64,000 nucleotides of DNA from a virus, in IMG/VR virus record IMGVR_UViG_3300025645_000048, positions 1 to 64,000 of that record. The stretch is one strand, 5' to 3'. A program made the translations under genes and the position numbers. Shown here one piece after another: positions 38,453-49,199 of the stretch (its first letter is position 1; each line of letters begins with the position of its first letter). The notes under the pieces are model-generated. The model searched no databases and was not told where the DNA came from. It worked only from the letters and a program-made list of their open reading frames with translations.

Positions 38453-40864
38453 CTAAAAATCTATTTTTCCATTTTCTTCTATTTTCTGTGCATTTCTGAA
38501 TACTATCCATCTACCTCCTGCTTCTCTTCCTTCTTCAGGATCGCACTTGTGCTTGTACTGGTTGTAAGCAGTTAACCATTTATAGAACCTAGTCCTTGAC
38601 ACTGTCATTTTAGACTTAGGTGCAAAGTCTGGATTGTCTTCAATAAAATCAAAGTACAAGTCTTGTTTAAATATTTTTGTATTGGTTGCTAACATTTTGT
38701 TCAAAGGCATTCCATCCAGTATACCACACCATTCTATAAACTCATGACATGTTTCGGCAGATAGCCTTCTAATCTTCAAGTTAACAAATTCACTCTTAAC
38801 TAAACCATCTCTTAGGTAAAGCTGAAGACACTCAATCATAAAATTATCAAAAGCACACCACTCATCATCATTCCATTCTCCGAACATAAGTTTACCAAAC
38901 TCTTTTACTGGAGTATGCTCTCTAGTATAATGTTGTGCTAATTCTAACTCCCACTTTCTTCGTTCAAATGATGAGCCTTTACCTCTAATTGCATAGTTTG
39001 TAGTTATTGCAACCTTTGGAGATTTAGAAAAAGGAATCTTTATAGCATCTTTGTTTTTCTTTTCCAGTGTTAATCCCTCAGTAACAACTGAGAATAATCG
39101 TTCAAAGTTAAAATGCTTACTTACATCATCAAAACATAATATTTGTGTGTCTGCACTTACTAATTGATAGGCGAATGATTTCTCAAAATTAAAAGACTTA
39201 CCATCTATTACAACAACCTTCTTCATGTGTGACAAAGCATTTATAAATAAACCCTTACCAGTACCACCTTCAGGAGAATCAGATATTTGTTCATCATTAA
39301 GTATTGTAGCTGGGCTATACGATAAATTTTTCCATGCATGTAGCAAATATCCTATTGTAGACCTCATTGAATTGACTCTACTCTCATCCTTACCACATAT
39401 ATTAGTAATAAAACTTTTATAGTCACACTCATTAGACTCACATGAAACATAAGTTCTGTCTATTACATGGTCCTTCCAAACATATCCACCTAAATCTAGG
39501 TAGTCTATTGGTGTAACACTATTGTGTGTAACCTTTACTGCACCAGATTTATAATATAAGTATGCAGTATTCTTATTGTCTTCTATAAAATACACATCAA
39601 TAGAAGATAATAAAGTTAAAAACTCTTCTCTAAAATATCTTGTATGCTCTGCAAAGTAATTATAAACTGTCAAATCATCTATTTCTAACAAGTAGTTAAG
39701 AATAAAATCTTTAATCTCTTTTTCTGATGTGTGGTCTATAAGGTTGTTTGTAACCCTTACAAATACATAACTTCTACTGCCTTCAGGATTAAATTTATAA
39801 AAACCATTCTCTTCTAAGAAACTTTTAAAAGATATGTGTACAATTTTTATAACTCCTTTATCATTCTTTGTCCAGAACTTACTATTAGATTGCTCATCCT
39901 CGAGTCTGACTAAAACATTCTCTATTGTGCCGACCTCAACATCAGACTCTTCAAGCTGGGATCGGATTTCTTTTTTTGATACACCTCTTTTTAACTTCTC
40001 TCTAACTAAGTTAACCTTGTCTTCATCCTCATAATACTTTGTACCAAAGTTTTGTTTTTGTGCATATGCAGAAGATATAGTCCTCTTAATTTCTGTAGCA
40101 CTAAAATTTTGACTAGAAAAACTATTCATGACATACTCTGCTAGAGTCTGGTTAACACCAAAATCATTAAATGCTGCGGCCAATATATAGATGTTTTGAT
40201 TTCTCTGACCTTCTATCATTGGGTACTTCTTTTGCCACCACTTAGTTAAAATGTCAACTATTTTATTCTCATCTGTTACTGGTATGGTAGGGATATCTAC
40301 ATGTTTTATAACCTCTGTATACTCTTGCTCTACAATTTTATCCCATGTACTTGAATTAGCATTAACATAAAGTAATGGATCATAAGACTCATAACAAACT
40401 CTAGATATGTTTTTACAAGTTTTATCGAAATACTCTGAGTTTACATGATGTTGCAGACTTAAGAAATAATTTTTATGATTTTCTGGCTCTTTAGGAATTT
40501 TAACAACTGCCTTTAATCCTTTGCCACTAGGTGAAATAAACAAAGCAAATATATATTTGTTTTTACTTAGCCTTTCTTTTTCCTGAAGCATGTCTTTGTT
40601 AGTCTTATAACCATCAAAGTCTAAACATATTAAGCCACTGTGACTCTGTAGTGAGGAATCATTTCTTTTTGTGAATGTCCCACTGAAACAAATGGCCGGG
40701 AGTTGTTGTTTTAATAAGTTTCTTTTTTCTTTGTCTTTCTCAGCTCGGATTCTTTTAACTAAATCTTTTGATGAGCCTTCTTGTATTCTTTTTAAGATAA
40801 CATCGACCTTTCTATAGAATGGTTGTGCTGTTTCTTTAATATCTTTAAAGATGGTGATGTCCAT
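38453..40864 (-). CDS. Primase-helicase (VirE N-terminal/BT4734-like + PriCT + P-loop helicase)
   Basis: KQQLPAICFSGTF, GLICLDFD, FISPSGKGLK, GQRNQ, Walker A GGTGKG, Walker B ILCFDD. Confidence 0.88.
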   Translation of the reverse strand: MDITIFKDIKETAQPFYRKVDVILKRIQEGSSKDLVKRIRAEKDKEKRNLLKQQLPAICFSGTFTKRNDSSLQSHSGLICLDFDGYKTNKDMLQEKERLSKNKYIFALFISPSGKGLKAVVKIPKEPENHKNYFLSLQHHVNSEYFDKTCKNISRVCYESYDPLLYVNANSSTWDKIVEQEYTEVIKHVDIPTIPVTDENKIVDILTKWWQKKYPMIEGQRNQNIYILAAAFNDFGVNQTLAEYVMNSFSSQNFSATEIKRTISSAYAQKQNFGTKYYEDEDKVNLVREKLKRGVSKKEIRSQLEESDVEVGTIENVLVRLEDEQSNSKFWTKNDKGVIKIVHISFKSFLEENGFYKFNPEGSRSYVFVRVTNNLIDHTSEKEIKDFILNYLLEIDDLTVYNYFAEHTRYFREEFLTLLSSIDVYFIEDNKNTAYLYYKSGAVKVTHNSVTPIDYLDLGGYVWKDHVIDRTYVSCESNECDYKSFITNICGKDESRVNSMRSTIGYLLHAWKNLSYSPATILNDEQISDSPEGGTGKGLFINALSHMKKVVVIDGKSFNFEKSFAYQLVSADTQILCFDDVSKHFNFERLFSVVTEGLTLEKKNKDAIKIPFSKSPKVAITTNYAIRGKGSSFERRKWELELAQHYTREHTPVKEFGKLMFGEWNDDEWCAFDNFMIECLQLYLRDGLVKSEFVNLKIRRLSAETCHEFIEWCGILDGMPLNKMLATNTKIFKQDLYFDFIEDNPDFAPKSKMTVSRTRFYKWLTAYNQYKHKCDPEEGREAGGRWIVFRNAQKIEENGKIDF

Positions 40865-40908
40865 TTGATGTCGATTTAATTTAATTTAATTTTAACTTTT
40901 ACTCTGTT

Positions 40909-41017
40909 ATGTCAATTATGTCAATATTTAATAATATATAATAATATAAAAAAATATAATACTAATTGTTATTATAGTGGTCTATAGTAAATTTTTTTTG
41001 TCATTTGTCATTTGACA
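40909..41017. other. Putative replication-origin-like element, copy A
   Basis: ATGTCAATTATGTCAA, then an AT-rich spacer, then TGTCATTTGACA; same layout at 50041-50145; adjacent to the primase gene. Confidence 0.5.
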
Positions 41018-41056
41018 AAAGAGCAGAGAAGAGAAACCACACTCTTCTCATACCCT
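41017..41056 (-). terminator. Terminator-like hairpin after ssb
   Basis: GAGAAGAG/CTCTTCTC stem extended by AGGGTA/TGCTCT, followed by a T run on the - strand. Confidence 0.6.
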
Positions 41057-41067
41057 ATTGTCTTGAT

Positions 41068-41118
41068 TGTGAGTTAGTGTGGCTTTCGCCTCCTATTTCT
41101 CACACCCAAACACACTAA
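41068..41118 (-). ncRNA. Candidate pseudoknotted RNA element at the ssb stop codon
   Basis: TTAGTGT/ACACTAA stem crossed by TGTGAG/CTCACA, with an inner GGC-GAAA-GCC hairpin. Confidence 0.5.
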
Positions 41119-41411
41119 AATGGAAGATCAGGACTAACCTCTTCTTCTTTCTTTGCTACTGGTGGAGCTGGCTTTTGTTCTTTAGCCTCTGGCTTCCACT
41201 CATTAATAGTCACATAGTGAGACTTACCATAATCATCTACACCATCTCTGTTTCTATTAACTTTTAGTTTAGTATACCATTTTCCTTCATACTGGAAACG
41301 GTGTTCTTGTGGTATTTCAGAAAGACAGACTGATATTTCTATCAAGCCACCATCAAACTTTTCAACACCTTTACCTACTTTAATGTAGTTCTTTTTAGTT
41401 GCTTCACTCAT
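41115..41411 (-). CDS. Single-stranded DNA-binding protein-like
   Basis: Short OB-like body with acidic C-terminal tail ending DLPF; in the recombination cluster. Confidence 0.7.
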   Translation of the reverse strand: MSEATKKNYIKVGKGVEKFDGGLIEISVCLSEIPQEHRFQYEGKWYTKLKVNRNRDGVDDYGKSHYVTINEWKPEAKEQKPAPPVAKKEEEVSPDLPF

Positions 41412-41613
41412 TTTTTACAATTTTAATGTTTTGTTCCAAAAATTTTCTTGTTACAGAAAGAATTTGTCTTCTTTCCTTCCAACTACTACAAGTGTTTGGA
41501 ACATCCACTTGTAAGTGAGTTGGTCTTGTTTTCTTTTTATATAGGTTATATAATTTGCTTATCAATAAATGTGTTAACATCATGAGTTGCCTTATCACCG
41601 AAAAATTTCTCAT
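41404..41613 (-). CDS. Hypothetical protein (start uncertain)
   Basis: Fills the gap between the exonuclease and ssb genes. Confidence 0.4.
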   Translation of the reverse strand: MRNFSVIRQLMMLTHLLISKLYNLYKKKTRPTHLQVDVPNTCSSWKERRQILSVTRKFLEQNIKIVKNE

Positions 41614-42355
41614 AAATTCTAGTTGCTTGTTCTACTTTTAACTTACCTCTTTCAATAGTGTCGGCAGAAACAGGTCTCATTGACAACCTCATTGTCTGCT
41701 TGTCAATTACAAGAAACAACATTGGTTTATTAAATAATCTTTGGTATATATAGCTTTGAGCATCATAATTATAAGTAAAAAATGAGTATCTAAACTTTGT
41801 CATATCTGATGTAGTCTTTAAATCAATGACTGCACCATCACTATAGTCTATAACTTGCTCATTACCATCTTGGTCCTCTGCTATAACTTGAAAAGCAGAG
41901 TCAGTTACAATATCAGCTTTGCCTTTCCACATATTATTCATTATAGATTCTGTGCCAGGAACTTCAAAATTGTTGTCTCTACTATATATAATAGAACTCA
42001 TTTCTAGACTATCCTTCATAGTAGCCACTAATTTGTCTAAATGCTCTTGCTCTTTTCTAAGCAAAAGTATTTCGCCTGGAGGACAAACTTCTTTGTATGC
42101 TTTAGTTGACCTAGATGCTACATCTACTATTTCATACTCTTTAATTCTATCTGGCTCAAGCATTGCAGTATGAAAGTAAGAACCTTCAATCAATGCTTTA
42201 GACTTTAAAGTGTCTTGCTTGAATAAATTAGGAGTAGTAAATAATACTCTGATGTCTGAGTATGATAAAAACTGCTTACCATAGTCACCATAATAATTGA
42301 TGTCATCTTGGAGTTTATCCAAGACTATTGCTTGTGGATCCATAGGGCTATACAT
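41546..42355 (-). CDS. PD-(D/E)xK exonuclease (RecE/exonuclease VIII-like)
   Basis: LSYSDI, GSYFHTAMLEP, KGKADI, IDLKTT, Y..Q..IY motifs. Confidence 0.85.
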   Translation of the reverse strand: MYSPMDPQAIVLDKLQDDINYYGDYGKQFLSYSDIRVLFTTPNLFKQDTLKSKALIEGSYFHTAMLEPDRIKEYEIVDVASRSTKAYKEVCPPGEILLLRKEQEHLDKLVATMKDSLEMSSIIYSRDNNFEVPGTESIMNNMWKGKADIVTDSAFQVIAEDQDGNEQVIDYSDGAVIDLKTTSDMTKFRYSFFTYNYDAQSYIYQRLFNKPMLFLVIDKQTMRLSMRPVSADTIERGKLKVEQATRIYEKFFGDKATHDVNTFIDKQII

Positions 42356-42890
42356 GTTTTTTAATTTCTACTTTTACATCATCACCTATTGTGTATCCAC
42401 CTTCTAAGACTTCTATTATTTTTGGCAGACCTAATTCTTTATTCTTAGCAATCCATCCTAGGACCACATCCCACTTTTCATCCTCAACTTTTAAAGTCCA
42501 TTTACCTTCTTTCTTGGTTTTTTTAATAACCTTAGTAGGTTTGTTTTGATTAGCTATAGCATTACCTACTTCATCTGCACTTGCTACAGATGTATCTAAT
42601 CCTATACCTAAATTACCTAATGCTCTTCCCCAAGCTGAAGTCTCTGCATTTTCTACATAACTTGTTTTATTTATAAATGTAGAATTTTTAGACTCTTCGG
42701 CTAAACCTGTAGCTAAGATTCTATCTTTATCATCTTTTATAATAGCCATGACTAGTATTGATGATTCTGTTTTCTCTATAACTTCTGTAGTTAGAGAATA
42801 CTTAGGATATGTGGCTCTGAAATACTTAAGTCTTTCATGAACTTCAACATAATCCTTACCTTTAATTTTAATTGATTTTAATTTATTCAT
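42348..42890 (-). CDS. Single-strand annealing protein (phage recombinase)
   Basis: KGKDYVEVHER...ENAETSAWGRAL; adjacent to exonuclease and SSB. Confidence 0.7.
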   Translation of the reverse strand: MNKLKSIKIKGKDYVEVHERLKYFRATYPKYSLTTEVIEKTESSILVMAIIKDDKDRILATGLAEESKNSTFINKTSYVENAETSAWGRALGNLGIGLDTSVASADEVGNAIANQNKPTKVIKKTKKEGKWTLKVEDEKWDVVLGWIAKNKELGLPKIIEVLEGGYTIGDDVKVEIKKHV

Positions 42891-43300
42891 AATTGTGATT
42901 TAGATTTAATTTGATTTAATTTTCTTTTATAATTAGTGAACTTAACCATGATAGCCTCTCTTCTGTTTTTTAAATTCTGAATGTGCTTATCGTTTTTTCT
43001 GGTGTTTACTTCCTTTTTAATTCTTTCTTTAATAATGTCTAGTTTATACTGACAATTACTTAATGCTAACAAGATTACTCCAACCTTCCACCCATGGATA
43101 TAAAAAAAGTCATACTCATCTTTAGTGCAGATTCTAAAATAGTCTCCACCCTTACCCATATTAAGTATCTCTATCCTATCAGTAAACTTTTGGATTTTAC
43201 AACCTTTGTTTATTATAGACTCTCTATTGCTAAATTCTGTAATGATAGCTCTAGGATCTTCTTTGGCTTCATTATATATCTCAATCAGAGTTCGCATCAT
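42887..43300 (-). CDS. Hypothetical protein
   Basis: 137-aa ORF in the operon. Confidence 0.65.
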   Translation of the reverse strand: MMRTLIEIYNEAKEDPRAIITEFSNRESIINKGCKIQKFTDRIEILNMGKGGDYFRICTKDEYDFFYIHGWKVGVILLALSNCQYKLDIIKERIKKEVNTRKNDKHIQNLKNRREAIMVKFTNYKRKLNQIKSKSQL

Positions 43301-43586
43301 TTGTGGCTTGGTCTATAAAATTTTTATAATCGGAATCTTGTTCAATCATTTTCTTGGCTTGATTGTAGCCATACATAATATTGGAATGAGTTATGTTGTA
43401 TCCATTTTCTTGTAAAAACCTTTGGATAAAACTAACTCTAATAGGTCTTTCTTTGCAGAGATAATATAATATCTGCCTTGCTTCGACAATGTCTTGTCTC
43501 TTTGTTTTGCTAAACATTTCATCTAATGTTAGATGGAATTGAGTGGCCACAGCTTGACTATACTTATCAAATATTTCTTTTTTCAT
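43281..43586 (-). CDS. DnaA C-terminal-like helix-turn-helix protein
   Basis: SKTKRQDIVEARQILYYLC...HSNIMYG resembles DnaA domain IV. Confidence 0.7.
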   Translation of the reverse strand: MKKEIFDKYSQAVATQFHLTLDEMFSKTKRQDIVEARQILYYLCKERPIRVSFIQRFLQENGYNITHSNIMYGYNQAKKMIEQDSDYKNFIDQATNDANSD

Positions 43587-43805
43587 GTAATTTTTTTAGT
43601 AAATTAAAACCCACCTCTTGTATAACCAACACAAAACAAAATCAAACCATTAACAGATGTTGTGAGGTGGGATTTAACCTAGAATTAACTATCTAACTAA
43701 CTTTTATATAAATAGAATCTCATCATTGTCATCTTCATCTTCTGGATCTGGAGTATAATACTTTATCATTTATTGTCTTATATTTCCTCAAAACTAGACT
43801 TTTAT

Positions 43806-44006
43806 TTATTCAATACCTAATTTTTTGTTCCTTTTATTTATTGCCTTGGTAACTACATCCATACCATGCTTAAACTTACCTTCATGATTTTTTTCTAACC
43901 ACTTAGTCAATGCAATCCATTTCACCTGGAGGACATTTAATTCTTCTTTTGTTTCTTCTAATTCCCACTTGCACTCGGCAAGTACATCTAAACTTGTTTT
44001 TCTCAT
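43806..44006 (-). CDS. Hypothetical protein
   Basis: ORF with AT-rich leader. Confidence 0.6.
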   Translation of the reverse strand: MRKTSLDVLAECKWELEETKEELNVLQVKWIALTKWLEKNHEGKFKHGMDVVTKAINKRNKKLGIE

Positions 44007-44029
44007 TTTTTTAATTTAAAGTTATATAA

Positions 44030-44194
44030 TTATTTAATTCCACCATTTTTTATTTGATTTATGATGTCATTTATTAACTGATGATTGACCGACCATTTGT
44101 TTGCTTCGGCTTCATCATAAGATTGTTCACACCTTGCCTTCATCATTTTAGACAAGATGTGTAACAACTCTACCATGATATCTTTAGGACTCAT
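44030..44194 (-). CDS. Small hypothetical protein (MSPKDIMVELL...), not in ORF track
   Basis: 54-aa ORF read by hand, filling the gap. Confidence 0.55.
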   Translation of the reverse strand: MSPKDIMVELLHILSKMMKARCEQSYDEAEANKWSVNHQLINDIINQIKNGGIK

Positions 44195-44480
44195 CCTCTT
44201 CTAGTTTTCCAATTGCACATACACAGATTGAATAAACATCATTATCTACTTCTAAATCTTCACACCAATCTTTCCAGACCTCATCATCGACATCTTCTCT
44301 ATGCAGTCTAAACATTTTAGCTTTCTTATAGAACTCTACACCTTTGGGATAATATTTCTTTTCTATCACAAGATAAGAGTTCTTAAAGTCTTCTAGTTTT
44401 TCTTCAGCTTGTTCTCTTGCTTCGGTTTCCTTAGCAAGTAGCCCTTGTACATGCTTAATAATTTCAAATTGATTATCCAT
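44184..44480 (-). CDS. Hypothetical protein
   Basis: Early-region ORF. Confidence 0.6.
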   Translation of the reverse strand: MDNQFEIIKHVQGLLAKETEAREQAEEKLEDFKNSYLVIEKKYYPKGVEFYKKAKMFRLHREDVDDEVWKDWCEDLEVDNDVYSICVCAIGKLEEDES

Positions 44481-44724
44481 AATTTCTTTTTAATTTTAAG
44501 TTAATATCTTTTTTTAAGTATTCATAGTCCATTAATTGTTCTAAAGTATAGTCATCAAGGTAAAAAACATCATATACTAATTCACCATATTTCATAACTA
44601 AGTCAACTAAGTTTCCTATTATGTCTTGAATATTATCACCAGATGGTGTGGTCCAAGTTTCTCCATTATCTATTAATTCAGAATACTCTTGAATTACTTG
44701 ATTATATATTTCTTCTCTATTCAT
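44473..44724 (-). CDS. Hypothetical acidic protein
   Basis: Early-region ORF. Confidence 0.6.
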   Translation of the reverse strand: MNREEIYNQVIQEYSELIDNGETWTTPSGDNIQDIIGNLVDLVMKYGELVYDVFYLDDYTLEQLMDYEYLKKDINLKLKRNYG

Positions 44725-44952
44725 AATTTATTTAATTTAAGTTAATATTTCTTTCTAATTTTGTTTTATACCATTCAACATGAACAATATCATTGTTAAA
44801 CATATTGTCTGTATCTAAATCTTCTTTAGGTACATCATAGTGATATATTCCATATAACAAACCATTGTTGTTATCTTTTTTATCGGTTCTTTGTTGTTCA
44901 TAATGAACTGCTAATTTTACTATCATAATTTATTTAATTTAAGTTAATATTT
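44721..44952. repeat. 30-bp exact direct repeat flanking ORF 44732..44926
   Basis: TCATAATTTATTTAATTTAAGTTAATATTT at 44721-44750 and 44923-44952. Confidence 0.9.
44732..44926 (-). CDS. Hypothetical protein (repeat-flanked cassette)
   Basis: 64-aa ORF between the 30-bp repeats. Confidence 0.6.
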   Translation of the reverse strand: MIVKLAVHYEQQRTDKKDNNNGLLYGIYHYDVPKEDLDTDNMFNNDIVHVEWYKTKLERNINLN

Positions 44953-45067
44953 TTTGTACATCATAACTTAGTGCCACTAGTTCTTGAGTATCTTTTATTG
45001 ATTCTAATTGATTTTTAGAATACTTATCAGTAAGATTTAGTATTCTGTTTATTGCTCTTTCTCTCAT
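44939..45067 (-). CDS. Small hypothetical protein (MRERAINRIL...), not in ORF track
   Basis: 42-aa ORF with the same leader motif as its neighbours. Confidence 0.5.
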   Translation of the reverse strand: MRERAINRILNLTDKYSKNQLESIKDTQELVALSYDVQKILT

Positions 45068-45082
45068 ATTATTTAATTTAAG

Positions 45083-45721
45083 TTATACATTATTTGTTGA
45101 TTCTACAATCTCTGCACAAAGTTCTGATGGAATCTTACTTCTATCAAAGTAGCTTCCTCGACCTTGAGTTCCACTTTGACTTCCTCTTGGTGCAGATACA
45201 TGACAAGGATCTCCATTGTTACACATAGGTTTAGGAGTCCAATAAGTATTGTTGGTCCATATGTCTGTTGGCTTCATCCTATCATCTCCATACTGACAAT
45301 AGGTTAAAGTGTGTCGGACATGGTCAACATCATTCCAATGAGGAGACTTTCTCATCTTGCCTCTTGGATTCTCTATGTACCAAATCATATTAGGATTTTT
45401 CTTAAGGAGTATATCTATAATCTTCATAGTTCTCATTAAGATGTTTATTCCTTTGACTGCATTATTTGTCTTTGGCATAAACTCATGTCCTTTCTCCCAA
45501 TGATGTCCAATAGATGCTACAGAAAATGACTCACATGGTGGTGATGCCCATAACATATCTACTCTGTCAAAATTGATTGAACTAACCTGAAAATCCATAA
45601 TATCACAAACATAATTTGTGTTTGGGAAATCCACACAATCAGAAGAGAAGACTTTGTGTCCTCTCTTCTCTGCCTCTTTTCCTATGCTTCGGCTTCCACT
45701 AAAAAGTTCTACCACATTCAT
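45083..45721 (-). CDS. Short DNA (cytosine-5)-methyltransferase-like protein
   Basis: VVELFSGS (I), WASPPCESFS (IV), IENP (VI); compact 212-aa phage type. Confidence 0.85.
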   Translation of the reverse strand: MNVVELFSGSRSIGKEAEKRGHKVFSSDCVDFPNTNYVCDIMDFQVSSINFDRVDMLWASPPCESFSVASIGHHWEKGHEFMPKTNNAVKGINILMRTMKIIDILLKKNPNMIWYIENPRGKMRKSPHWNDVDHVRHTLTYCQYGDDRMKPTDIWTNNTYWTPKPMCNNGDPCHVSAPRGSQSGTQGRGSYFDRSKIPSELCAEIVESTNNV

Positions 45722-46062
45722 TGTTGGTTTCTTTTATAGTGACAAAAGATTAACCACTCATCAAGTCTGTCCTCAATGTAGTGTTGTAAATCAAAACTTA
45801 AGTCAGTTAGATAGTCGGCATAGTACTTAGTGTGGTCCACTTTTTTAGAAAGTGTCTGCCAATCTTTTGGTAATCTACCATTAAAATCTCCAATGATTTC
45901 ATTTTTGATTCTCTCCACTACAATAAGAGTTTGTCTTCTTACTAGTGGCATACTAAGGTGGAGATAATGCTCTTCCATAGCTTGTAAGAAATCATCTTTG
46001 TCGATAAATTCTTTGTCATAAGCATCAAGATTAAACTTTAATGCTTTCATAAATTTGCTCAT
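45718..46062 (-). CDS. Hypothetical protein downstream of the ribozyme
   Basis: ATG at 46062 (MSKFMKALK) with A-rich leader; preferred to the TTG start in the ORF track. Confidence 0.65.
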   Translation of the reverse strand: MSKFMKALKFNLDAYDKEFIDKDDFLQAMEEHYLHLSMPLVRRQTLIVVERIKNEIIGDFNGRLPKDWQTLSKKVDHTKYYADYLTDLSFDLQHYIEDRLDEWLIFCHYKRNQQ

Positions 46063-46080
46063 AATTATTTGTATTAAGTT

Positions 46081-46145
46081 AAACAATGACTCCCAGATGT
46101 CTGGGAGTTTCGTAGGTGTTTAAACCTTTACTCTTCAGATTGTTC
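46081..46145 (-). ncRNA. Hammerhead ribozyme, type I
   Basis: GAACAAU-CUGAAGA-GUAAAGGU UUAAAC ACCUAC-GAAA-CUCCCAG ACAU CUGGGAG-UC-AUUGUUU; full catalytic core and three stems. Confidence 0.92.
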
Positions 46146-46637
46146 TTTCTCTACAAAGTCATACTTCTGTCTTAAGTCTCCCTCTGTACATTCTTTAGGG
46201 AATAACTCTTCCATAAGTGCTTTCTCACAACTATACATCCATTTTGTGCCCTCCTTTTTTATTTGTTCGGCTTTCCTACTGCCTACTGAGGTGTCCTTAA
46301 TTAGTGTTTTATAAGTCTCAACAGAAATGTCTTTCCATAACTTCTTTAATTCTCCTTCAGAATCACACATAGTATTCCAAATGTTATTACCTTCTTTGTC
46401 ATATGCAGAGTCACCTAAAATAGTTATTTTATCTCCTTGCCACCTACCGATAATGGTAGATGGTTGAGGAATTGAATCTTTGTACTCTATGTGTCCTTCT
46501 GCCAATAGTAAAGCAAGTCCTTGCAGAATCTCTCCTCTACTGCTTATAATCTCTCCTATTTTTAACCCACTACCGAAAGTATGAGGAGTAAGTAGTTCTT
46601 TTTTTGTTTTGTTTATTACTCTAAAATATTGTCCCAT
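46128..46637 (-). CDS. Phage early-region protein (MGQYF...)
   Basis: MGQYFRVINKTKKE...GLKIGE...GRWQGDKI..LGD pattern; stop codon lies inside the ribozyme. Confidence 0.7.
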   Translation of the reverse strand: MGQYFRVINKTKKELLTPHTFGSGLKIGEIISSRGEILQGLALLLAEGHIEYKDSIPQPSTIIGRWQGDKITILGDSAYDKEGNNIWNTMCDSEGELKKLWKDISVETYKTLIKDTSVGSRKAEQIKKEGTKWMYSCEKALMEELFPKECTEGDLRQKYDFVEKEQSEE

Positions 46638-46639
46638 AA

Positions 46640-46855
46640 TTATTGTTTTTGTTCTTTTATTAGTTTATTAATGTCTTGTACTATTTTGAATACATTGTCT
46701 CCAACATCTGCACCTTCAATAATCCATTCTATTTTTTCTATAAGTTCTTTTTTGTTCATAATTATTGCTTTTGATTTATTTTTAGATTTTTCTATTAATA
46801 TTAATAAGTCATCTTGTGAATTGTTCCAATCCCAATATTCTTTAGTATTTCTCAT
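46640..46855 (-). CDS. Hypothetical protein
   Basis: Bounded by identical CAAAAACAATAATTATG junctions. Confidence 0.6.
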   Translation of the reverse strand: MRNTKEYWDWNNSQDDLLILIEKSKNKSKAIIMNKKELIEKIEWIIEGADVGDNVFKIVQDINKLIKEQKQ

Positions 46856-46857
46856 AA

Positions 46858-47148
46858 TTATTGTTTTTGATTTAAGATGAATTCATTTAAATGTTCTTTG
46901 TTGCTTTGGTCAAGCATCATATAGAACTCATAGAAGATTATTGTTCCAGTCATATTTCTTACAAATGGATTAGAACATTCTTCTCTTGCCTTAGTTAAGT
47001 GTGTAACCAAAGTATCCCATTTATCTTGTAGGTGGTTTGCAAGTAATGGATTGTCTGTCCAGACTCTATCAATAAAGTCATAGTGAAAATTGTTAGCATA
47101 GTAAGTAAATGCTACAATTGGGTCTTGTTTTGTTTTAGTGTGTGCCAT
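46858..47148 (-). CDS. Hypothetical protein
   Basis: Early ORF with TAACTATG start context. Confidence 0.65.
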   Translation of the reverse strand: MAHTKTKQDPIVAFTYYANNFHYDFIDRVWTDNPLLANHLQDKWDTLVTHLTKAREECSNPFVRNMTGTIIFYEFYMMLDQSNKEHLNEFILNQKQ

Positions 47149-47154
47149 AGTTAT

Positions 47155-47421
47155 TTATTTAATTGTTTTTAAAATTTTAGCATCATGCCATATATGAATC
47201 ATTGAGCATATAACATCATCTGTATGCTCTCCTTTATAATAGAAATTATACCAAGTTGTAAACTCTTCATCTGCTTTACAATATTCTTTTTTGAAAATCT
47301 CATATTCTTCATCACTTGTTCCGAACATATAGTTCAATGCTACATAACCATTTTTGTTGGTTTCTTTATACACCCAAAAGTCATCTACAACAAGGTGTTC
47401 AATCTTTAAAGTATTTTCCAT
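47155..47421 (-). CDS. Hypothetical protein
   Basis: Early ORF with TAACTATG start context. Confidence 0.6.
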   Translation of the reverse strand: MENTLKIEHLVVDDFWVYKETNKNGYVALNYMFGTSDEEYEIFKKEYCKADEEFTTWYNFYYKGEHTDDVICSMIHIWHDAKILKTIK

Positions 47422-47423
47422 AG

Positions 47424-47756
47424 TTATTTCTGTTTTTTAGATAGGTTAGTAATAATGTGTGCCATTGTATTTAAATGGTTTTCTAGTGGAGAATTTTTGT
47501 GTTCATTTCCATTCTCATCCAAGTGGATAATTGGAGATGAATTATCAAATTCCCAAGCTAGATCCTTTCCAGCTGTAGCATCCAAAACATCAATAATTCT
47601 ATTACATTGATTGATTTGTGCTTGAATAATTACTTGTTGTTTAGGCAAGGTTTTTTGTCCACTTATAGTGGTGTAGTAATTCTCTTCTAATCCCTCTTTT
47701 CTATTAGAGATTAAGTCTCGAATTAAGTCTAAATCTTTAGATTCAAATTGATTCAT
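47424..47756 (-). CDS. Hypothetical protein
   Basis: Likely start MNQFESK at 47756 after an A-rich leader. Confidence 0.6.
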   Translation of the reverse strand: MNQFESKDLDLIRDLISNRKEGLEENYYTTISGQKTLPKQQVIIQAQINQCNRIIDVLDATAGKDLAWEFDNSSPIIHLDENGNEHKNSPLENHLNTMAHIITNLSKKQK

Positions 47757-47793
47757 AATTTTATTAAATTTAATTATCTGCATTATTGCATTG

Positions 47794-47837
47794 AGATTAG
47801 GAGAGGAATCGAGCCTCTCCTTGTTCCAAACTAATCT
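47794..47837 (-). ncRNA. tRNA-like mini-element (acceptor-like stem + T-arm, no anticodon arm)
   Basis: AGATTAG-TTTGGAACAAG-GAGAGG-CTCGATT-CCTCTC-CTAATCT. Confidence 0.55.
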
Positions 47838-48469
47838 ATAGTACCACTTGTCATTCCTCTATTCAAGTAATACTCTTTCTCCTTACTTATCTCTTCTTCT
47901 GATTGTTGAGCATCTATAGTGAATAACACATCTTCTTCAATGTAATTGTCTCTCCATTGATTTGTGTCATAGTGCAACATTGCACCACCATCATTACCCT
48001 CATCATCAGTCTGAGGAATTAAGATAGTACCATCATCTAACCATAGTGCAAGTGGAGATTTGTACCATCCAAAACTCTCACATTCTTGTGGATTTAAGTG
48101 TCTGACATTAACAATCTTTCTACCAATTAGATGTGTGAATCTTGACCTATATTTATTGTGAGGTAGATTATTTACATAATCTTGAGCATTCTTACTTAAC
48201 TCTCTAAGCATTGCATTGACTTTATTTGGGTTTTTTGAATATTGTATACCATAAAGTCCTAACTTATAAGTGTTCTTAGCTTCTTTAATAAGTAGTCTAT
48301 CAGTTAACCAATCTGCAATAGTATTATTGTAGTAACCTTGCTTACTGATGAATTTCTTTGGATTCTTTCCTTGAGCAATCCATACTTGTTCTCTAATGTC
48401 CTTTAGAGTAAAAGGTTTGTCATCGAATTTATTAAATAGGTTGACAAAGATTTGTTGTTTGATTTTCAT
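47831..48469 (-). CDS. Hypothetical protein, two-domain
   Basis: Possible winged-helix N-terminus; C-terminal LIGRKIV.VR...GW...LWLDDGT...DDEGNDGGA domain. Confidence 0.7.
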   Translation of the reverse strand: MKIKQQIFVNLFNKFDDKPFTLKDIREQVWIAQGKNPKKFISKQGYYNNTIADWLTDRLLIKEAKNTYKLGLYGIQYSKNPNKVNAMLRELSKNAQDYVNNLPHNKYRSRFTHLIGRKIVNVRHLNPQECESFGWYKSPLALWLDDGTILIPQTDDEGNDGGAMLHYDTNQWRDNYIEEDVLFTIDAQQSEEEISKEKEYYLNRGMTSGTID

Positions 48470-48594
48470 TATGATGTGATTAAGTTAAAAGTTATAAATG
48501 TAATTCCTATAATATCAAAGAATAGTAATGTGTAGACTAAACAAGCTACTATAGGGTTAGTGTCATTCCAAATTGATTTGATTAAGTATTTCAT
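48469..48594 (-). CDS. 41-aa membrane peptide (MKYLIKSIWND...), not in ORF track
   Basis: TAACTATG start, hydrophobic segment, TAATG coupling to the next gene. Confidence 0.55.
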   Translation of the reverse strand: MKYLIKSIWNDTNPIVACLVYTLLFFDIIGITFITFNLITS

Positions 48595-48596
48595 AG

Positions 48597-48800
48597 TTAA
48601 GATATATTAGGGTTAAATTCAGTTATATAATAGTCTAGTAAATCATCTTTAGATTCTATTCTATTTTTATACAATGCATCTTGAGTTGCATAATATTTAG
48701 TGTTGGATTCAGTAATAGTGATGACATTACCATCTTCTATCCACTCATCAAACCTCTTTAAGATTTGAGAAAATTGATTATTTGTAAGTCTTATACTCAT
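48597..48800 (-). CDS. Hypothetical protein
   Basis: Early ORF with TAACTATG start. Confidence 0.6.
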   Translation of the reverse strand: MSIRLTNNQFSQILKRFDEWIEDGNVITITESNTKYYATQDALYKNRIESKDDLLDYYITEFNPNIS

Positions 48801-48985: not shown

Positions 48986-49199
48986 AGTTATAGGTTTAAA
49001 GGGTTAATGTTAATGTCTAATGCTTCACTCATTGTGAATACATTCTCGATAATAATAGTTAATTCATCCATTGTATTTAATTTAATTAAGTTAGATATGA
49101 GAGGTAAGTCACTGACTATCAGTGAGTTAGGTGTAAATTGTGTGTATAGTGTGTCTCTCATAGAGTAAATATACAATAAATATCTAATATATTACTAAT

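Follow-up and report, generated by a model that had tools for sequence, protein, structure and literature searches.

We analyzed gene ends on the minus strand of the IMG/VR virus record IMGVR_UViG_3300025645_000048, using its positions 1 to 64,000 (64,000 nt, hereafter the window, meaning the whole stretch of DNA that was analyzed). The source record comprises 89,305 bp in total with a G+C content of 31.6% and is rated complete by CheckV, the window being its first 64 kb; no tRNA gene was found in the 89,305-bp record with ARAGORN. Between about 49.5 and 38.4 kb every gene lies on the minus strand, the intergenic spacing is mostly -8 to +15 nt, and the genes assigned with Pfam or PHROGs include a C5 methyltransferase, a RecE-like exonuclease, a DnaA-type helix-turn-helix protein and a BT4734-type primase. 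Three RNA elements sit at gene ends within this leftward run: a hammerhead ribozyme at the end of open reading frame (ORF) 46128-46637, a tRNA-like minihelix at the end of ORF 47831-48469, and a fold in the 3' untranslated region (UTR) of a 98-codon gene (41115-41411) whose product ends in an acidic stretch plus DLPF (site 3; Table 1). A preliminary description of the region had seen here three structured RNAs, each straddling a stop codon, and had suggested that this overlap couples the processing of a polycistronic message to translation.

A scan for minus-strand terminators from about 49.5 to 41.0 kb gave a single convincing terminator, the one just downstream of site 3, which makes one long leftward transcript across this region plausible. 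With respect to the host, neither megablast nor blastn of the window against cultured phages returned a match. In a tblastn search with the primase, phages of Flavobacterium, Nonlabens, Polaribacter and Cellulophaga were found at no more than 40% identity, and one uncultured record at 66%. Since the cultured phages related by their primase infect these genera, the host of this uncultured marine phage probably belongs to the Flavobacteriia.

A type I hammerhead ribozyme with conserved pairing

The sequence at 46145-46081 combines a CUGANGA core, the GAAA, an A15.1-U16.1 pair, an NUH triplet and three helices with covariation. Our own hammerhead descriptor matched it once in the window and never in 100 dinucleotide shuffles. 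The preliminary description had read the core as encoding the last codons of the upstream gene, and this holds: UCU-GAA-GAG-UAA within the hammerhead gives S-E-E and the stop of ORF 46128-46637, with the TAA (46130-46128) inside stem II. The probable next start codon is ATG 46063-46061 (MSKFMKAL), 25 nt past the predicted cut.

The comparison with relatives showed that the fold is maintained while its sequence changes. Homologues of the upstream gene were present in five IMG/VR loci, three of which retain the ribozyme, either with altered loops or with a wholly different yet complementary stem III. The pattern of core plus stem II occurs in 13 IMG/VR contigs, with stems I and III differing among them; one of these (L018 10790-10880) carries a circularly permuted type III hammerhead with the window-type stem II. 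A covariance model (R1), seeded with five copies in an alignment of equal geometry, recovered 21 copies in 20 sources, including some extra copies with other stem II sequences. Several relatives hold more than one copy (four in L014, three in L019, two each in L001 and L010), and the window has a single one by this model, also with filters off. In the resulting alignment 94.7% of the cells are paired, against 69.2% after shuffling and 33-44% when the partners are slid, and 17 of the 21 pairs are altered on both sides. By eye, all 21 aligned rows keep the core; among the 20 type I copies the free core position N7 is A, G, C or U and the triplet is GUC or GUA (H17 = C or A). MAFFT alignments of the hammerheads, as well as of the minihelices described below, fell out of structural register and were excluded from counting.

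Rfam, applied to the whole window at gathering level, gave no hammerhead match. On the 141-nt region its best match was RF03152, the RAGATH-1 hammerhead, at 23.3 bits against a gathering value of 56.3 (E 0.038). Stem III (46108-46089) was flagged in the terminator scan and rejected as a terminator, the relatives having no T run there. A candidate pseudoknot of loop II has a complementary run in the window family and was unconvincing by eye, without a count, in members with other flanks. Judged by the sequence features above, 46145-46081 is a genuine type I hammerhead for which self-cleavage is predicted.

One relative, L003, contains a type III hammerhead at 1620-1710 (Rfam Hammerhead_3, 48.1 bits against a gathering value of 48.5). 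Just ahead of it stands a G+C-rich hairpin, which shares nucleotides with the 5' strand of stem III and might form a competing fold.

A tRNA-like minihelix and its leader

The second element has an acceptor-like stem on a T-arm-like stem, a loop of T-loop consensus and covariation, as in elements of the t-element type, and an 11-nt linker in place of the D and anticodon arms, which sets it apart from a canonical tRNA cloverleaf. Consistent with this, ARAGORN called no tRNA, and Rfam, tRNA family included, gave no match in scans of the whole window and of the small region. The TAG of ORF 47831-48469 (47833-47831) lies within the 5' strand of the acceptor-like stem, AGAUUAG, as the preliminary description had noted.

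A covariance model (R2) seeded with four elements of other phages, the window excluded, found the window element at 30.2 bits (E 3e-4) among 17 matches in 682 kb. With a descriptor applied to 684 kb of fetched loci, we obtained 7 distinct elements (10 with duplicates), compared to 1 in the reversed sequences. In the family alignment 96.6% of the cells are paired (76.7% shuffled, 47-58% slid), and 10 of 12 pairs are altered on both sides across 13 distinct rows of a fitted alignment. The elements are 41-44 nt long, their stack counts 11-13 pairs, and the linker of 10-12 nt always contains UGG; at least six unrelated stem sequences adopt the same geometry. Most relatives have the T-loop UUCGAUU, from which the CUCGAUU of the window differs by one base. 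Two of them, L006 and L007, share a near-identical minihelix with the window, with a neighbouring protein that is only 69-78% identical.

The element is followed by a leader with a small hairpin. The stem of this hairpin varies among relatives and stays complementary (UGCA/UGCA, GAC/GUC, GACA/UGUC). The ATG at 47783, listed as the start of the following 119-codon ORF, sits within the hairpin, and the equivalent frame of L007 is no longer than 9 codons; ATG 47756-47754 (MNQFESKD) is probably the true start codon. A scan for the leader motif gave 19 matches in 17 stretches: 11 stand behind a minihelix, one behind a true tRNA-Arg, one behind a tRNA-like fold with an oversized anticodon loop and three behind a terminator plus an AT-rich stretch, the other three being unrelated. 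The tRNA-Arg, located in L003 and without an encoded CCA, precedes the same leader motif in the same register.

Word searches in open-access texts, restricted to main articles, did not reveal any earlier account of an acceptor/T-arm minihelix plus leader hairpin in phages. On comparative grounds the minihelix is a member of a conserved family of acceptor stem plus T-arm elements, for which we infer a role in processing.

A further tRNA-like structure was seen in L004 (3611-3727), where a four-armed fold follows a homologue of ORF 46128-46637. Its acceptor-like stem measures 9 bp, its T-arm has UUCGAAU and the other two arms are non-canonical; the z-score is only -2.3, and the fold was called neither by ARAGORN nor by Rfam.

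A fold and terminator behind the DLPF-tailed gene

At site 3 the fold of the 3' UTR is followed by an intrinsic terminator, a G+C-rich hairpin with a U run (41049-41026), which precedes an AT-rich region and the primase gene; most relatives have a hairpin plus T run at the equivalent place. The preliminary description had proposed a pseudoknot with the stop codon of an ssb gene in its first stem. The complementarity, including the TAG at 41117-41115, is present; the pseudoknot itself is half supported. The minimum-energy fold uses helix 2. In L025, which is the nearest relative and has a primase with 94% identity, helix 2 is replaced by CGUAAG/CUUACG, amounting to two compensatory changes. The same relative has a TAA stop plus an extra A, and the outer, stop-codon-bearing half of its helix 1 no longer pairs. 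Helix 1 is represented by different complementary sequences in relatives lacking helix 2. Given that no loop separates the 3' strands and that the first loop has 5 nt, simultaneous formation of the two complete helices would seem to be strained.

For a broader comparison, 80 loci around the primase gene were examined, of which 67 rows represent distinct spacer sequences or loci without a DLPF-type tail. In most of the 67 rows the DLPF-tailed gene is followed by a terminator only. The window and eight relatives, nine distinct sequences in all, have UUUGG 3-7 nt past the stop codon; a GAAA-capped hairpin is found in seven of these nine and in the cut locus L060, L025 having a larger insert instead and L039 none. 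Several of the UUUGG sequences show, by eye, short enclosing stems of differing sequence. The same RNA element follows two non-homologous families of DLPF-tailed proteins. By this comparison, the fold at site 3 is conserved.

Rfam gave nothing beyond noise on the minus strand of site 3, be it at gathering level, in an E-value scan of 40500-48600 or on the small region; a hit to AniS on the opposite strand and one to Clostridiales-2 at the terminator were attributed to chance and discarded. The identity of the upstream gene as ssb, encoding a single-strand DNA-binding protein (SSB), could not be confirmed: no Pfam or PHROGs family and no meaningful PDB sequence match was found, and an AlphaFold model based on 14 relatives was poor, with a mean predicted local distance difference test (pLDDT) score of 57.6. 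What suggests the label is the acidic C-terminal DLPF tail together with the neighbouring genes, including the exonuclease.

The slot before the primase (41115-41411 in the window, and the equivalent place in L025-L104) is occupied by at least three unrelated families of proteins of 85-117 residues. In every family the C-terminus consists of an acidic stretch and DLPF, or a sequence close to DLPF, and none is in Pfam or PHROGs. It looks as if a small single-strand DNA-binding protein had been replaced here by non-orthologous counterparts. In L042 (1162-1275) the DLPF-tailed gene is followed by a larger structured spacer, which begins one base past the stop codon, is enclosed by AUGUUGGU / ACCAACAU and has a D-arm-like run inside. 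In L061, L066, L067, L069 and L072 a permissive search paired UUYUAA, the region of the stop codon, with the beginning of the 5' arm of the terminator. Such pairings are G-U-rich and weak, and the window lacks them; they would offer an alternative resembling an anti-terminator, to be broken by a terminating ribosome.

Table 1 Coordinates of the RNA elements and associated features in the window
Feature	Position	Strand	Remarks
Type I hammerhead ribozyme	46081..46145	minus	descriptor; covariation in relatives
Hammerhead stem I, GAACAAU/AUUGUUU	46145-46139 / 46087-46081	minus	
Hammerhead core, CUGAAGA	46138-46132	minus	
Hammerhead stem II	46131-46112	minus	20 nt
Hammerhead GAAA	46111-46108	minus	
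Hammerhead stem III, CUCCCAG/CUGGGAG	46108-46089	minus	
Hammerhead GUC triplet	C17 at 46088	minus	predicted cut between 46088 and 46087
End of A/U-rich leader between predicted cut (46087) and next gene	46061..46080	minus	contains junction motif UUUAACUUAA
tRNA-like minihelix	47794..47837	minus	no D arm, no anticodon arm
Minihelix acceptor-like stem, AGAUUAG / CUAAUCU	47837-47831 / 47800-47794	minus	
Minihelix linker, UUUGGAACAAG	47830-47820	minus	11 nt, with GG
Minihelix T-arm-like stem, GAGAGG / CCUCUC	47819-47814 / 47806-47801	minus	stacks on acceptor-like stem
Minihelix loop, CUCGAUU	47813-47807	minus	7 nt
Leader 3' of minihelix	47757..47793	minus	C-AA, small hairpin, A/U-rich run to start
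Leader hairpin, UGCA-AUAA-UGCA	47790-47779	minus	
3'-UTR fold after DLPF-tailed (SSB-like) gene (site 3)	41068..41118	minus	
Site 3 helix 1, UUAGUGUG / CACACUAA	41118-41111 / 41081-41074	minus	TAG at 41117-41115
Site 3 linker, UUUGG		minus	between helix 1 and helix 2
Site 3 helix 2, UGUGAG / CUCACA	41104-41099 / 41073-41068	minus	
Site 3 inner hairpin, GGC-GAAA-GCC	41090-41081	minus	
Intrinsic terminator, GAGAAGAG / CUCUUCUC	41016..41049 (hairpin 41049-41026)	minus	8-nt loop, U-rich tail
Junction motif matches	44496-44505, 44737-44746, 44939-44948, 45078-45087, 46074-46083, 48480-48489, 49086-49095	minus	

Variable stop positions and near-fixed distances to the next start codon

Next, we compared the location of the upstream stop codon and the downstream start codon across relatives. 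For the hammerhead, 20 type I copies were used with the longest upstream frame, leaving out the permuted L018 and repeats of the same contig. Relative to the core C, the stop lies at -14 (twice), -12 (twice), -11 (three times), -7 (twice), -5, -3 (three times), +8 (five times, all at one orthologous locus) and +11 (twice); several of the upstream frames are short, with 24-37 codons. It falls inside the fold in 13 of the 20 copies and 4-7 nt upstream of stem I in the remaining seven. For the minihelix, 14 instances were counted, leaving out same-contig repeats and the identical L111 and L119, and likewise a by-eye candidate in L004 near 2710-2755 and a weak match in L044. Here the stops stand at +3, +3, -2, -11, -10, -10, -3, -27, +3, -3, -3, -4, -4 and -22 with respect to the first paired base, so that the stop overlaps the stem in four instances, abuts it in five and is clear of it by 7-24 nt in five.

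The distance to the next gene, by comparison, is nearly fixed. From the hammerhead cut to the next ATG there are 20-32 nt in 20/20 copies, and from the 3' end of the minihelix 32-38 nt in 12 of 13 (75 nt in L004; L006 is cut off by the contig end). This combination of a near-fixed start distance and a variable stop position suggests that the elements travel with the downstream gene, and that the upstream gene ends where it meets them. Moreover, two of the three frames hit a stop inside each element anyway: in the hammerhead a UGA in the core (C-UGA) and a UAA at the start of stem II (GAG-UAA), and in the minihelix two UAGs at the 5' end. Overlap would therefore arise whenever a gene reads in. 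Most genes of this operon are spaced by -8 to +15 nt, and the elements, of 44 or 65 nt, take up the entire gap in which they lie. Two relatives illustrate this flexibility: the upstream gene of L007, which is truncated and in another frame, uses the other of the two minihelix UAGs, and in L014 the upstream TAA is lost and the gene extends to the next stop inside stem II.

These results bear directly on the central proposal of the preliminary description, according to which the overlap with stop codons couples processing to translation of the upstream gene. The stop positions range from -14 to +11 at the hammerhead and from -27 to +3 at the minihelix and are not conserved, and L025 loses the stop-codon half of site 3 helix 1. 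The proposal thus fails the check suggested along with it, conservation of the overlap when upstream genes differ, and is not supported by the relatives. Genome compaction, which had been named as the simpler alternative, fits better, given the near-fixed distance to the next start codon. As to three structured RNAs, conservation holds for the hammerhead and the tRNA mimic and in part for site 3.

In addition, relatives provide what amounts to a natural swap experiment. The same upstream gene is followed by the hammerhead in the window, L001, L002, L005 and L021, by a tRNA in L003 and by the four-armed tRNA-like fold in L004. Its C-terminus reads ...DFVEK in L003, ...EKEQEVS in L004 and ...EKEQSEE where the ribozyme follows, and the downstream gene differs for each type of element. 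From this exchange behind one and the same gene we argue that the elements do the same job, namely to give the next gene a defined message start.

Proposed function and alternative explanations

We consider it reasonably likely that the three sites are unrelated RNA elements at gene ends, the first two of which belong to portable cassettes of element, leader and gene against which the upstream genes are packed. According to this explanation, the hammerhead would cut itself between 46088 and 46087; the ribozyme body would stay on the 3' end of the upstream message with the stop codon intact, 42 nt from the new end, and the downstream gene would gain a 5'-OH end 25 nt before its start codon. The minihelix can be seen as a tRNA reduced to the acceptor/T-arm stack and the GG linker, the parts that RNase P and RNase Z would read, and a cut at its 3' side would let the leader of the next gene begin with a small protective hairpin. 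Upstream genes would often read into these cassettes until they meet a stop triplet. The fold at site 3 and the terminator may close the leftward unit, and we can only guess at 3'-end stabilization or regulation. The earlier suggestion of RNA-processing signals on a polycistronic message would thereby apply to two of the three elements, both belonging to classes that cut RNA or direct its cutting and both at gene boundaries of one apparent leftward unit, cleavage at either being a prediction. The term "protein-free" used for the scheme can be kept only for the hammerhead because the tRNA mimic would need RNase P and RNase Z.

Several points weigh against this explanation. The hammerhead stays under every Rfam gathering threshold, and the covariation counts of both hammerhead and minihelix come from model-fitted alignments, with four hammerhead rows (long stem III inserts or permutation) that are only partly aligned and yet counted. 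The minimum-energy fold of the minihelix region in the window omits the A/U-rich acceptor stem, with a z-score of only -1.5. With just one hammerhead and one minihelix in 89 kb, the label of a system is thin for this genome. At the hammerhead the stop is found within 7 nt of stem I in 20/20 copies, a proximity that compaction explains and that coupling would also allow. A canonical 5' cut by RNase P would remove the stop codon in four of the 14 minihelices, that of the window included, and would leave it at the 3' end or no more than 1 nt from it in five more, which is awkward for a simple processing signal. This leaves two possibilities: the relevant cut is the one at the 3' side of the minihelix, or damage to the upstream message is intended. 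Finally, four public RNA runs from one study contain 0.07-0.10 of the sampled words, these data being assembled contigs that are unable to show ends. Across 40900-48500 they are short, low-depth pieces of the phage and its relatives and uninformative either way; one contig of 151 nt spans 45965-46115, leaving fewer than 31 nt on one side of the predicted hammerhead cut.

Among the alternatives, the minihelix and its leader might act uncut, by insulating the start region, by aiding initiation without a Shine-Dalgarno sequence or as a stable 3' cap. The conserved unit does begin with the 5' end of the acceptor and reach up to the start codon at near-fixed spacing, a 5' cut would harm the upstream gene in nine of 14 instances, and the leader appears to work without a minihelix, as L110, L116 and L118 have its motif by itself after a terminator and an AT-rich stretch. 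However, the retained parts, a stack of about 12 acceptor/T pairs, the T-loop and the GG linker, are what tRNA-processing enzymes recognise, and a true tRNA, which needs excision to work, precedes the same leader motif in the same register; on balance we regard action in the uncut state as unlikely. A role of translation, in which a ribosome terminating at the stop inside each fold would hold it open and so gate cutting or stabilization, appears still less likely. The geometry is correct in the window, all 20 hammerhead stops at -14 to +11 would be within reach of a terminating ribosome judging by footprint sizes, nine of 14 minihelices have the stop overlapping or abutting the stem, and, since cutting by RNase P would deprive the window gene of its stop, the timing of cleavage relative to translation could matter; the G-U-rich pairings of the stop region in L061, L066, L067, L069 and L072 would also fit. 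Against this stand the lack of conservation in stop position, as opposed to the constant distance to the next start, and the loss of the stop-codon half of helix 1 in L025, as well as two minihelices with the stop 19-24 nt upstream of the stem, which we estimate to be beyond a terminating ribosome. Furthermore, stops are present in two of three frames of the hammerhead core/stem II and of the minihelix 5' end in any case, and self-cleavage is irreversible and can occur before the first ribosome arrives.

It could also be argued that the elements act mainly as DNA, as homology handles for the swapping of cassettes, with incidental RNA folds. They do occur between unrelated flanking genes in different phages, and the junction motif of the UAACUUAA type is repeated at several gene boundaries between 44.5 and 49.1 kb, but selection for DNA homology would not yield 17 of 21 and 10 of 12 pairs altered on both sides, nor a hammerhead core that is invariant exactly at the catalytic positions, and we find this idea very improbable. 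Least credible to us is that the minihelix is a decaying tRNA gene without present function and site 3 a mere terminator region. The genome has no tRNA genes, the window T-loop is one base off that of L006 and L007, and most relatives have nothing but a terminator after the DLPF-tailed gene; on the other hand, at least six unrelated stem sequences hold the geometry and the UGG linker of 10-12 nt, the element is near-identical where the neighbouring protein has diverged to 69-78% identity, and at site 3 the two compensatory changes in helix 2 and the UUUGG start common to nine distinct sequences speak for more than a terminator.

A bolder extension, which we offer as a long shot, would have cleavage gated by the ribosome that finishes the upstream gene, so that hammerhead and tRNA mimic would be interchangeable, translation-sensing punctuation modules of marine Flavobacteriia phages. 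The RNase P cut would then strip the 212-codon gene of its stop and turn untranslated or late copies of its message into non-stop RNAs whose tagged product is destroyed, combining a shut-off timer for an early gene with a stable message for the next one.

Relation to known systems

Early mRNA of phage T7 is processed at double-stranded RNase III sites, and animal mitochondria punctuate their transcripts with full tRNAs. The region described here resembles both in having structured signals, as predicted, between the genes of a polycistronic transcript, and differs from both in using one ribozyme and one tRNA fragment, once each in the window genome. If processing by RNase P and RNase Z is true, tRNA punctuation would extend from organelles to phages of bacteria. 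The autoregulatory pseudoknot of T4 gene 32 sits in the 5' leader of the message for a single-strand DNA-binding protein. Site 3 is similar as a pseudoknot-like fold on the message of a putative protein of this kind, with its SSB identity unconfirmed; unlike the T4 pseudoknot, it is placed in the 3' UTR and follows two non-homologous DLPF-tailed families.

Hammerheads of this kind in phages are already known since 2011, and passages of that report describe them as flanking genes and propose that they process long transcripts (Perreault et al. 2011, PMC3088659). The clustered phage and prophage hammerheads portrayed there share with the present family the complete consensus core, the three helices, the short spacers between phage genes and the frequent occurrence of several copies per genome (four in L014 and three in L019 among our relatives), and they were proposed to cut long phage transcripts into gene-length messages. 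Compared with those passages, the window subfamily is distinguished as a type I form with a near-invariant 20-nt stem II, scores below the Rfam gathering thresholds and lies 20-32 nt ahead of the next start in 20/20 copies. The role of self-cleaving ribozymes in bacteria and phages is still an open question according to a review (PMC6765202).

For the minihelix, the closest described analogue that we found is the plant mitochondrial t-element, as far as it is covered by passages of Forner et al. 2007 (PMC1920247). There, t-elements direct RNase P and RNase Z to cuts from which the ends of mRNAs arise, in some cases within a reading frame upstream of the stop codon. Common to both are a tRNA-like fold with a conserved T-arm inside longer transcripts and true tRNAs that do the same job at other boundaries. 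Set against the same passages, the minihelix belongs to a bacteriophage, is 41-44 nt long without D or anticodon arm, has predicted ends only, and precedes a conserved leader hairpin, with the distance to the start codon fixed.

Junction motif, spacer and annotation

Several gene boundaries in the leftward operon, the one just 3' of the hammerhead included, carry a motif of the (A/U)UUAACUUAA type. Window-wide, the motif TTTAACTTAA gave 37 matches against a shuffle mean of 31, which is not above chance; those on the minus strand are concentrated at gene junctions from 44.5 to 49.1 kb. Two points matter for the annotation of such genomes: genes that extend into the RNA elements borrow the stop codons of the latter, and ATGs in the leader hairpin are miscalled as starts, as at 47783. 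The only long spacer of the leftward gene run measures 219 nt (43587-43805, minus strand); within it are a possible small ORF and two distant stretches that are complementary to each other, CCCACCUC ... GAGGUGGG.

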